DNA from: a virus
Lineage: Duplodnaviria; Caudoviricetes
Virus record (IMG/VR): IMGVR_UViG_2706795703_000001
Coordinates: 8,140-72,139 of that record
Length of the DNA: 64,000 bases
Strand: one strand, 5' to 3'
Shown: one piece after another, positions 59,896 through 61,858 of the stretch
Position numbering within the stretch: the first letter of the stretch is position 1
Layout: every line of letters begins with the position of its first letter
The notes under the pieces: model-generated
What the model saw: only the letters and a program-made list of their open reading frames with translations
The model's database searches: none
Told to the model about the DNA's origin: nothing
Translations under genes and position numbers: made by a program

Positions 59896-59924
59896 GGGTG
59901 GCTCCTTCTTGGTTGTGGTGGGGA

Positions 59925-60155
59925 CTACGGGGCTTCGACGTCGTCAGCCGGGCCGGAGCCGTAGCTGCTGGGGTGCTTGGCGGTGGCGCAGCGCGCGTTC
60001 TTGGCGGCCATGCCGATGCCGTGCTTGGCGTTCACGAACGCGGGGTTCATGCACGCTTGGTCATAGACCGGATAGGTGCCGGTCTCGGCGCTGGCGGTCG
60101 CGGCACCGAACAGGGCCAGCCCTGCGGTCAGTGCGGCGGCGATCAGGTACTTCAT
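59925..60155 (-). CDS. Small secreted protein (76 aa)
   Basis: Signal peptide MKYLIAAALTAGLALFGAATASA; two Cys; SD AGGAGG. Confidence 0.7.
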   Translation of the reverse strand: MKYLIAAALTAGLALFGAATASAETGTYPVYDQACMNPAFVNAKHGIGMAAKNARCATAKHPSSYGSGPADDVEAP

Positions 60156-60195
60156 GGTGGTTCCTCCTGTGGTTGTGGTTGTGGTTGGTCGTGCG

Positions 60196-60266
60196 CTCCA
60201 GGGGCGGGAATCGAACCCGCGAGGTTGGCTCGTCAGCCGTGGCGACTCCATCGCGCCAGCCCTGGA
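60196..60266 (-). ncRNA. tRNA-like element (71 nt) with normal acceptor, D and T arms but a shrunken anticodon arm
   Basis: Acceptor TCCAGGG/CCCTGGA; D stem GGCG/CGCC with GG in the loop; T arm GCGGG-TTCGATT-CCCGC; third arm GGCT-GACG-AGCC; no encoded CCA. Confidence 0.7.
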
Positions 60267-60270
60267 AGGT

Positions 60271-60307
60271 GGTGCCAGGCCAGTGGTCAGTTCACCGGCC
60301 TGGCACC
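60271..60307 (-). other. 15-bp RNA hairpin between the DUF932 stop and the tRNA-like element
   Basis: GGTGCCAGGCCGGTG-AACTGAC-CACTGGCCTGGCACC with one G-U pair; no U-tract. Confidence 0.7.
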
Positions 60308-60313
60308 GGTCTA

Positions 60314-61363
60314 CTACACCGGCATCAGGGCGGTAAACGCCCGTGCCTTCATGTCGGCCACGTCCACCGACGTCAGCGTGCGCTGGGCCCGCCGGATCGC
60401 CGCCTCCTCGTCGTCGTCCACCTTGGCCGCCAGCGGGGCCTTGTGGTCCAGGTACTCGGTCATGGCGTTGTACACCCCGAAGGCGGTGCCCTTGAAGGGC
60501 GCGACGGTGGCGGCGGTGTCGTACAGGCTGGCCACCGCGCGGGCCTTGGCCTTGCGCCCGTCGGCCTGCTTCTGAGTGGTCGACCCCTCGACGTTCCAGA
60601 TGTCCTCCAGCACGTCCAGCACCTCGATGGACCCCATTTCGCGGGCAATCAGCCGCTCGCACTGTTCCACGAAGGTGTCGCGGTAGGCGAAGGTGACGCC
60701 CAGCAGCTGGCGCACTTCGGCCAGGCGCTTGGTGGGGTCACCGGTGTGGCGCAGGCTGACCGACGACCGCGCCGCGTTCTCTGCCATCCGCTGGGTGTTG
60801 GCGCAGACGATGCGCACGGGGCTGATCAACGCCCGCAACGGGTACTCGCCGGTGTGGTTGTTGAGCAGGCAGATGTACAGGTCGGTGATGTCCAGCTCAC
60901 CGGTCACCGGGCTGCGAAACTCCATGTGACCCGGCAAGCGCATGGTCACGAAGGTGTCGCGGCCACCGCGCAGCGCCCCGATGGTTTCGATGTGCGCCCC
61001 GCCCTCGTCCACCAGCGACGACAGCATCGGCGTGGTCTCCTCGTTGCTGAAGGGCACCCAGCGGTTGCCGACCACGCCCAGCGCCTCGGGCTGGTGGTTG
61101 ATGGGATTGTCGCGCAGCACCACGTGGCGGTCGGGCACCGCCAGGGCGTACTGCTCGCCGCCGTCGGTGGTGTACTTGGCCACCAGCGGCTGCTTGCGGA
61201 CGTTCCAGCCGCGCATGTGGGCGGCGTCGAGGGCCTCGTCCACGGTCATCAGGTGACCGACGGGGGTGCCCAGCTTGTGCCAGGCGTCGACGCGCCCGTT
61301 GCGGTCCACGCGGCTGTCGGCGTAGCTGGCCTGGCCGTCGGTGATGTCGATTTCGTGCGCCAT
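60314..61363 (-). CDS. DUF932 / TIGR03299-like phage-plasmid protein (349 aa)
   Basis: AWHKLG, LGVVGNRW.P..N, ETIGALRGGR, NNHTG...PVRIVCANT, NAMTEYLDH; ATG 61363 with SD AGGAGG. Confidence 0.85.
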   Translation of the reverse strand: MAHEIDITDGQASYADSRVDRNGRVDAWHKLGTPVGHLMTVDEALDAAHMRGWNVRKQPLVAKYTTDGGEQYALAVPDRHVVLRDNPINHQPEALGVVGNRWVPFSNEETTPMLSSLVDEGGAHIETIGALRGGRDTFVTMRLPGHMEFRSPVTGELDITDLYICLLNNHTGEYPLRALISPVRIVCANTQRMAENAARSSVSLRHTGDPTKRLAEVRQLLGVTFAYRDTFVEQCERLIAREMGSIEVLDVLEDIWNVEGSTTQKQADGRKAKARAVASLYDTAATVAPFKGTAFGVYNAMTEYLDHKAPLAAKVDDDEEAAIRRAQRTLTSVDVADMKARAFTALMPV

Positions 61364-61428
61364 GGTGATCCTCCTTGATCGTTGGTTGTGGTTGGTTGCG
61401 CGTTGGCCAGCCGCGCCCCTGGTCGGCC

Positions 61429-61758
61429 CTAGCGGACCAGCGCGCTGTCGGTGACGGTGTAGCCGTCGGGCAGCAGGCCCTCCAGGCGCTCGGCCACGTC
61501 CAGCGGCTGGACGTCGCCGGGCACCGTGATGGTCACGGTGACCGACTTGGTGGTGGCCAGGGTGGCGGTGACCACGGGCCCGTAGGTGGGCACCCAGTTC
61601 CCGGTGCGTACCAGCCCTGCCTCGCCCACGGCGGTGTAGGCGTCGGACTTGTCGGCCGCCGACCGCAGGCGGGTAATGGGCCCGTCTGCGGCCTGCACCC
61701 ACACGTTGCCGGTCACGGGGTTGAAGTACGCGGCGGCAGGGTAGGTAATGGCGGCCAT
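61429..61758 (-). CDS. Hypothetical protein (109 aa)
   Basis: SD AGGAG after cassette 7. Confidence 0.75.
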   Translation of the reverse strand: MAAITYPAAAYFNPVTGNVWVQAADGPITRLRSAADKSDAYTAVGEAGLVRTGNWVPTYGPVVTATLATTKSVTVTITVPGDVQPLDVAERLEGLLPDGYTVTDSALVR

Positions 61759-61777: not shown

Positions 61778-61858
61778 GGCGGGGCGGTCCCGCCGGGCTG
61801 ACAGGTATGAAGTTACCCGACATATGCGGGCAAGTCAAACGGTACGACCAGGCAATTT
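61778..61858 (-). promoter_or_regulatory. Operator-promoter cassette 7 (TTGACT-N17-TAACTT) with leader hairpin and upstream AAATTGCCTG
   Basis: -35 at 61833-38, -10 at 61810-15, hairpin at 61778-94, upstream element at 61849-58. Confidence 0.85.

Follow-up and report, generated by a model that had tools for sequence, protein, structure and literature searches.

How does a phage from a group regarded as free of tRNA genes come to carry, between two genes of one operon, a segment with the outline of a tRNA, and what might such a segment do there? The question arises in a lytic mycobacteriophage of the genus Coopervirus (cluster B4), of whose 72,139-nt genome a stretch of 64,000 nucleotides (hereafter the window) was analyzed. 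No tRNAs are predicted in cluster B4 phages (PMC4472886), which for B4 agrees with the remark in an initial annotation that cluster B phages generally lack tRNA genes. The segment, a 71-nt element on the minus strand (60196..60266), lies in a rightward-arm operon and is tRNA-shaped, as judged from its fold and from shuffled controls. We refer to it as type A.

A tRNA-shaped element that cannot decode

Read on the minus strand, the acceptor 5' strand (60266-60260) forms seven Watson-Crick pairs with the acceptor 3' strand (60203-60197). A CU dinucleotide leads to the D arm (60257-60241; 4-bp stem and 9-nt loop containing GG), and 2 nt separate the D stem from a mini arm (60238-60227) that stands in the place of the anticodon arm. 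A variable region of 6 nt (60226-60221), a T arm of 5 bp with the canonical loop TTCGATT (60220-60204), and the discriminator G at 60196 complete the element. The 7-bp acceptor, the 5-bp T stem with a TTCRANY loop, and G18 G19 are canonical tRNA features, and all stems were perfectly paired. The T-arm motif, GGTTCGATTCC, fits the t-element consensus GGTTCRANYCC. Whether the element was folded by itself or within the full spacer, the cloverleaf had the minimum energy. The departures from a tRNA were equally clear. Positions 8 and 14 are both C in all three type A variants, so that the U8/A14 tertiary pair is missing; CCA is absent from the encoded 3' end; and instead of a 5-bp anticodon stem with a 7-nt loop, U33, and an anticodon, the mini arm has 4 bp and the 4-nt loop GACG, a configuration likewise kept in Magpie and Cooper. 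The initial annotation had read 60266-60196 in the same way, and its stems, loops, missing U8/A14, and missing CCA matched ours base for base.

That annotation had also expected tRNA finders to report a pseudogene or nothing, and they reported nothing: ARAGORN, run on the window in tRNA and tmRNA mode, found 0 genes, and Rfam gave no tRNA match in the window at gathering thresholds. The general tRNA model RF00005 scored the element at 14.5 bits against a cut-off of 29, and the element was the sole candidate for a tRNA model across the 72,139-nt genome. A generic tRNA descriptor (seven Watson-Crick acceptor pairs, a 4-bp D stem with a GG loop, and a 5-bp T stem with a TTCRANN loop) matched the window once, at the element, and matched none of 300 dinucleotide-preserving shuffles; a relaxed version matched 1 of 300. 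The cloverleaf topology of the element was regained in 0 of 1000 shuffles. The structure is not due to chance, and the argument for this rests on topology rather than on energy because the fold-energy z-scores of the isolated cassettes were modest (-0.3 to -2.7). The element is thus tRNA-shaped but unable to decode, as follows from the dimensions of the mini arm, the score of less than the cut-off, and the silence of ARAGORN. Two other RNA classes were considered and rejected. A tmRNA was dismissed on the empty ARAGORN tmRNA search and the length of merely 71 nt, and a YrlA or other Y RNA on the absence of any Rfam match even at E values up to 10 and on the four neighboring genes, which are either DUF932 or without a Pfam match.

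The gene upstream of the element (60314..61363, minus strand) encodes a 349-residue DUF932 protein similar to Nigel gp88 (Pfam PF06067, E = 4.8e-48). A link of DUF932 to tRNA biology was sought, and the search returned no solved relative, no informative literature, and a protein family of unknown function (PHROG 1221). Directly after the stop codon of this gene stands a 15-bp stem-loop (60271..60307, minus strand) with one G-U pair, the loop AACTGAC, and no U tract, confirming the hairpin that had been noticed 4 nt upstream of the element. It was found in all Coopervirus alleles, including those in which the element is missing, with compensatory changes, and distant relatives also have a hairpin 3' of the homologous DUF932 gene. 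The stem-loop is probably a 3'-end stabilizer and not a terminator. The 4-nt linker ACCU (60267..60270, minus strand) joins it to the element, and a cut by RNase P is predicted between 60267 and 60266.

On its 3' side, the element is followed by a 40-nt CA-rich leader (60156..60195, minus strand) with the Shine-Dalgarno sequence AGGAGG at 60168-60163. The CGCA with which this leader opens is part of the leader consensus and is present in the empty alleles too. A small gene of 76 codons (59925..60155, minus strand, start at 60155; PHROG 8425, unknown function) comes next. The initial annotation had described a CA-rich leader and a gene for a secreted protein at this place. The leader was borne out, whereas secretion rests on a signal-peptide-like N terminus, judged from the translation by eye; some relatives label the product a membrane protein. 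Neither promoter-like nor U-tract terminator-like sites were found between the DUF932 gene and the 76-residue gene, and the promoter-like site TTGACT-17 nt-TAACTT, a consensus-like match only, lies at 61810..61838 (minus strand). Because no such site separates the flanking genes, the element is placed by its sequence context within one transcription unit, in the orientation of the operon, as had been claimed.

The spacers at 61364-61430 (minus strand) and 59896-59924 have the same design, consisting of a hairpin, a CA-rich leader of the CGCAACCAACCACAACC type, and a Shine-Dalgarno sequence. The cassette slot can be described as one such operon spacer carrying an insert. An RNase E homologue has been reported for cluster B phages (PMC4472886), and an enzyme of this kind encoded by the phage could bear on the processing of structured spacers.

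Alleles of the cassette slot

As evident from a comparison of Coopervirus phages and their kin, the slot holds four to six mutually unrelated tRNA-shaped inserts, or none. Type A, the form in the window, occurs in Magpie, Zemanar, Apex, Heath, BobbyK, Frederick, Fortunato, Hangman, Bane2, and Mithril and, diverged, in Cooper (middle arm of 4 bp with a 4-nt loop); in Bane1, ~36 nt of it are flipped and the middle arm is disrupted. Nigel, phi1_186018, Stinger, and RawrgerThat carry type B, of unrelated sequence, with a middle stem of 3-4 bp. Type C, with a middle arm of 10-11 bp and no clear D arm, was seen in ChrisnMich, and type D, with a middle arm of ~10-11 bp, in Hydro, VioletZ, and JAMaL. 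Outside Coopervirus, Imvubu (genus Imvubuvirus) and Rinkes (no genus in the record) have a C-like form with a middle arm of 8 bp. The slot is empty in BrownCNA, Adawi, Prince, and Mudslide, where this was seen, and in Lolalove, Austelle, and Waleliano, where it was inferred. When filled and empty alleles were compared, the limits of the insert ran exactly from position +1 to the discriminator. Three states occur within the single ICTV species Coopervirus brownCNA: type A in Mithril, type D in Hydro, and the empty slot in BrownCNA. Because the slot holds unrelated tRNA-shaped inserts or stands empty, the allele comparison shows the element to be dispensable and exchangeable, as judged by what occupies the slot from phage to phage.

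Eight representative cassettes were folded. Each formed a four-way junction whose minimum-energy structure was identical or close to the centroid, with a closing stem of 6-7 bp, a D-like arm, and a central arm of widely varying length. The four-way topology was found in 0 of 1000 shuffles for any cassette. A T-like arm of 5 bp and 7 nt sits in all types immediately next to the 3' side of the closing stem. The sequences of types B, C, and D and of the Imvubu and Rinkes cassettes show no relationship, and all inserts lie in the sense orientation. The acceptor and T stems are intact in every type, and the abnormal part is the middle arm, which in every insert is 1-2 bp too short or 3-6 bp too long (range 3-11 bp). 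Types C and D and the Imvubu and Rinkes forms furthermore have non-canonical T loops and weak D arms. A canonical tRNA was found in none of the ~21 filled slots, and ARAGORN rejected all inserts. Only one insert, the type B form of RawrgerThat (533-603 of locus extract L012), exceeded the Rfam tRNA cut-off, at 38.3 bits; it has a 3-bp anticodon stem and is unannotated.

The near-identical type B insert of Nigel (L001 1829-1898) is annotated as tRNA-Ile, although ARAGORN called neither of the two, and its sole match in an Rfam scan at E <= 10 was the tRNA-Sec model (21.7 bits, cut-off 47). The insert of phi1_186018 likewise bears the annotation tRNA-Ile. Elsewhere the start of the small gene has been over-extended through the cassette, as in Cooper gp92 (L004 1768-2142), Stinger gp88 (L011 500-874), and JAMaL gp91 (L014 557-850). 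At the empty slot of Adawi, gp90 (L015 540-848) extends through the hairpin and the leader. The likelier true start, by comparison of the sequences, is the ATG common to all relatives, which follows the CA-rich leader and the Shine-Dalgarno sequence.

The flipped segment of Bane1 (locus extract L010 ~430-470; window 60285-60250) takes in the 3' arm of the hairpin together with the 5' half of the element, so that neither structure is left intact; a true rearrangement and an assembly artefact are both conceivable. In a wastewater contig of 2143 nt, both flanks matched and 105 unrelated letters replaced window positions 60160-60267, i.e. leader and element. This may hint at a further natural cassette type. 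The public sequencing runs each contained at most 0.13 of the sampled words of the stretch, and the four runs that were examined gave contigs alone, from which RNA ends are not apparent. A scan for the conserved hairpin recovered only the known Zemanar and ChrisnMich copies among viral contigs and nothing among metagenome contigs, and a search of viral contigs with the DUF932 protein gave only Cooper and two distant relatives without a cassette.

No tRNA-like element was found 3' of the DUF932 gene in KayaCho, Phaedrus, Rosebush, Reprobate, Saguaro, or one Gordonia phage. In other genera of Bclasvirinae and in more distant phages, this gene is followed by the hairpin alone or by the hairpin and a promoter. 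In KayaCho (L088 ~1575-1610), the hairpin is followed, in the place of the cassette, by the promoter-like sequence TTGACA ... TAACTT and a leader hairpin, from which it was deduced that the junction is an operon boundary in that genus.

Conservation and tRNA ancestry

The element of the window is 98.6% identical to that of Magpie, compared with 78% for the DUF932 gene, 89% for the small gene, and 83% for the leader. Divergence at fourfold-degenerate sites is 0.37 and 0.17 in the flanking genes, and the element differs at 1 of 71 positions, which deviates from the neutral-site rate at P <= 2.6e-5 even with the lower value. For the window compared with Cooper, and with the nearer gene alone as neutral yardstick, the excess conservation was not significant (P = 0.15). 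Part of the identity to the Magpie group could stem from recent recombinational transfer rather than from purifying selection. The Cooper variant differs by 8 substitutions and 1 deletion, all of which lie in loops or preserve pairing; in its mini arm, one pair has changed from U-A to C-G, a double compensatory change, and another from G-C to G-U. All 20 of the 20 pairs are kept in all type A variants, whereas 43-62% pair in a slid register, and conservation within type A reaches the loop sequence as well as the pairing. The covariation set for type A consists of only three distinct sequences, and 173 of 500 shuffles reached the observed score, so that this control, unlike the slid register, carries no information. 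Between Imvubu and Rinkes, two double compensatory changes were found in the T stem, around the same loop. Structural conservation, which the initial annotation had named as a test and the lack of which it would have accepted as refutation, is thus evident in the kept pairs and in the compensatory change of the mini arm. That annotation had overlooked the polymorphism of the slot.

The frame formed by the acceptor stem and the T arm of type A was found in 63 bacterial tRNAs, 46 of them tRNA-Asn(GTT) and 9 tRNA-Gln; none of the 63 is mycobacterial. For types C and D, the T arm and the acceptor have counterparts in tRNA-Asn genes of Microbacterium phages; for type B, the 3' half agrees with tRNA-Met genes of enterobacterial phages. 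U1-A72 and G73, which are typical of Asn and Gln tRNAs, are present in all forms except type B. Because their acceptor and T-arm parts match bacterial and phage tRNA genes, the cassettes are by sequence resemblance tRNA-derived, type A from a tRNA of the Asn type. The canonical tRNAs of these Microbacterium (Asn) and enterobacterial (Met) phages agree with the cassettes in acceptor, T arm, and discriminator. The element of the window differs from them in having no functional anticodon arm, a score of less than the cut-off, no U8/A14, and no call by a tRNA finder. That the element might be just a decaying canonical tRNA had been named as a possible refutation. Origin from a tRNA is borne out by these matches, but decay is not, the element being more conserved than its coding flanks and its changes preserving the pairing.

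Possible functions and known counterparts

We consider the cassettes to be best explained, with a probability of roughly 45%, as a non-decoding, t-element-like module that would be cut by RNase P and RNase Z, punctuating the transcript and releasing a small tRNA-shaped RNA. What the element keeps of a tRNA is recognized by RNase P, RNase Z, and the CCA-adding enzyme; the ribosome and most synthetases depend on what it has lost. According to this proposal, the "top half" of a tRNA would be maintained, i.e. the acceptor stacked on the T arm together with the elbow of D and T loops, with the anticodon arm reduced to a stub, and the whole would form an exchangeable cassette between the conserved stem-loop and the CA-rich leader. 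Host RNase P would cut at the predicted site, 4 nt beyond the hairpin, so that the DUF932 mRNA would end shortly after this protective structure, and RNase Z or an equivalent 3' activity would cut after the discriminator at 60196. The products would be a ~71-nt tRNA-shaped RNA, probably CCA-tailed, and a downstream mRNA beginning at the CA-rich leader. Such a module would be dispensable and would be exchanged among phages by recombination. Several findings count against this explanation. Seven related phages have an empty slot (four seen and three inferred), and Bane1 carries the inversion; we deduced from both that the element is non-essential and that the design of hairpin and leader works alone. 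In types C and D and in Imvubu and Rinkes, the non-canonical T loops and weak D arms may make the cassettes poor substrates of RNase P and RNase Z. The absence of U8/A14 in type A also speaks against a processing module.

The released RNA might instead act in trans as a tRNA mimic or decoy, occupying or misleading a host factor whose recognition of tRNA depends on acceptor stem and elbow but not on the anticodon. Candidate targets would be a defence toxin that modifies the acceptor or a tRNA-maturation or amidotransferase enzyme that reads U1-A72, which together with G73 is common to all forms but type B. Nucleotidyltransferases of the MenT/AbiEii type and tRNA-pyrophosphorylating toxSAS enzymes are candidate toxins that act on the acceptor end. 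Presence or absence and allele swaps at one slot, with three states in one ICTV species, are reminiscent of accessory or counter-defence loci, which vary among phages; every type lacks decoding ability and keeps the tRNA outline, and in type A the loops are conserved and not the pairing alone. On the other hand, the types are alike in shape only and have no common sequence, the T loops of C and D are degenerate, and many relatives manage without the element on the same laboratory host, so that a mimic of this kind appears unlikely. A decoy for anticodon nucleases is unlikely because the element has no anticodon loop, and sensing by Rel or a T-box, raised in the initial annotation, requires codon or specifier pairing, for which the element has no counterpart. 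A broader version, in which a rapidly exchanged family of anticodon-less mimics would be excised from the early transcript and sponge host factors reading acceptor and elbow in trans, their turnover reflecting an arms race, strikes us as rather more doubtful still. The proposal that the slot once received functional phage tRNAs (Asn, Ile/Met) of which neutral relics are left draws on the tRNA ancestry of all types, the 38.3 bits still reached by RawrgerThat type B, the empty alleles, the Bane1 inversion through the element, and the erosion of D arms and T loops in types C and D. It has to contend with the much stronger conservation of type A relative to adjacent neutral sites, the compensatory changes in type A and between Imvubu and Rinkes, damage that, in three or more independent lineages, is limited to the middle arm and spares the acceptor and T stems, which stayed perfect, and the ~21 filled slots, all sense-oriented, with not one canonical tRNA among them. 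We regard such pseudogene decay, too, as an unlikely account.

The remaining explanations fared considerably worse. The sharp cassette boundaries and the name "integrase" given to the adjacent DUF932 gene in phi1_186018 (L002 735-1781) would suit a recombination site, be it an attP-type core or a target of site-specific or homing recombination. That label looks unfounded, since the DUF932 protein contains no integrase domain according to Pfam and PHROGs. Moreover, cluster B has been described as non-temperate (PMC4472886), no mycobacterial tRNA is among the 63 that share the 3' half of the element, and the full cloverleaf including its 5' half is kept, which an attP core would not need; this explanation is therefore very improbable. 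That the element works as a decoding tRNA in spite of its unusual anticodon arm is hardly credible: against the annotation of the Nigel allele as tRNA-Ile and the passing of the Rfam cut-off by the RawrgerThat allele stand the 4-nt loop of type A, which leaves no anticodon triplet in a 7-nt loop, its 14.5 bits, the type B anticodon stem of merely 3-4 bp, and the rejection of all inserts by ARAGORN.

Processing elements and mimics resembling tRNAs are already known. In plant mitochondria, RNase P cleaves the 5' side of t-elements and RNase Z their 3' side, which generates mRNA ends and sets stable RNAs free (PMC1920247). Like the phage element, t-elements have a non-canonical cloverleaf and a GGTTCRANYCC T arm, and they lie within a longer transcript beside stem-loops. 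Their ends have been mapped experimentally and small RNAs with C/A tails are known for them, whereas the phage element is known here from its sequence; furthermore, they are organellar and not viral, and no polymorphism of unrelated cassette alleles has been described for them. The mascRNA and MEN-beta modules at the 3' ends of MALAT1 and NEAT1 are excised by RNase P and RNase Z, CCA-tailed, and not aminoacylated, and the 3' end of the upstream RNA is protected. The likeness lies in a tRNA-shaped module with a reduced anticodon arm; the difference is that these are eukaryotic nuclear lncRNAs with a triple helix rather than a hairpin upstream, and there is no homology. The TMER RNAs of MHV68 are viral, processed by host tRNA enzymes, and uncharged, and they serve as processing handles for adjacent RNAs; they differ in being driven by Pol III, in releasing miRNA hairpins, and in belonging to a gammaherpesvirus of animals. 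YrlA and other bacterial Y RNAs, which occur in Mycobacterium smegmatis and some mycobacteriophages, mimic tRNA via D and T arms (PMC4201824). YrlA goes with a Ro60 gene, and the mycobacteriophages in which it occurs, ET08 being one, encode Ro60. A loop closes the tRNA-like domain of YrlA, to which a Ro-binding helix is attached. In the phage element, unlike YrlA, the acceptor stem is built from the two termini of the RNA, and there is no match to an Rfam Y RNA. Our literature searches brought up no earlier account of tRNA-like elements in cluster B phages or of such a polymorphic slot in any phage.

The usual explanation of phage tRNA genes is that they help with codon usage or make up for tRNAs that host defences have cleaved. 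The findings presented here concern lytic phages that are reported to be free of tRNAs and that retain tRNA-shaped RNAs without decoding ability. These cassettes are invisible to standard annotation and are buried in over-extended CDS calls in several GenBank records. The type A, type D, and empty alleles within one ICTV species provide natural near-isogenic sets. The occurrence of unrelated versions at one operon slot points to use of the tRNA outline itself, for processing or for mimicry, and the module would then be a bacterial-virus counterpart of mitochondrial t-elements and mascRNA.
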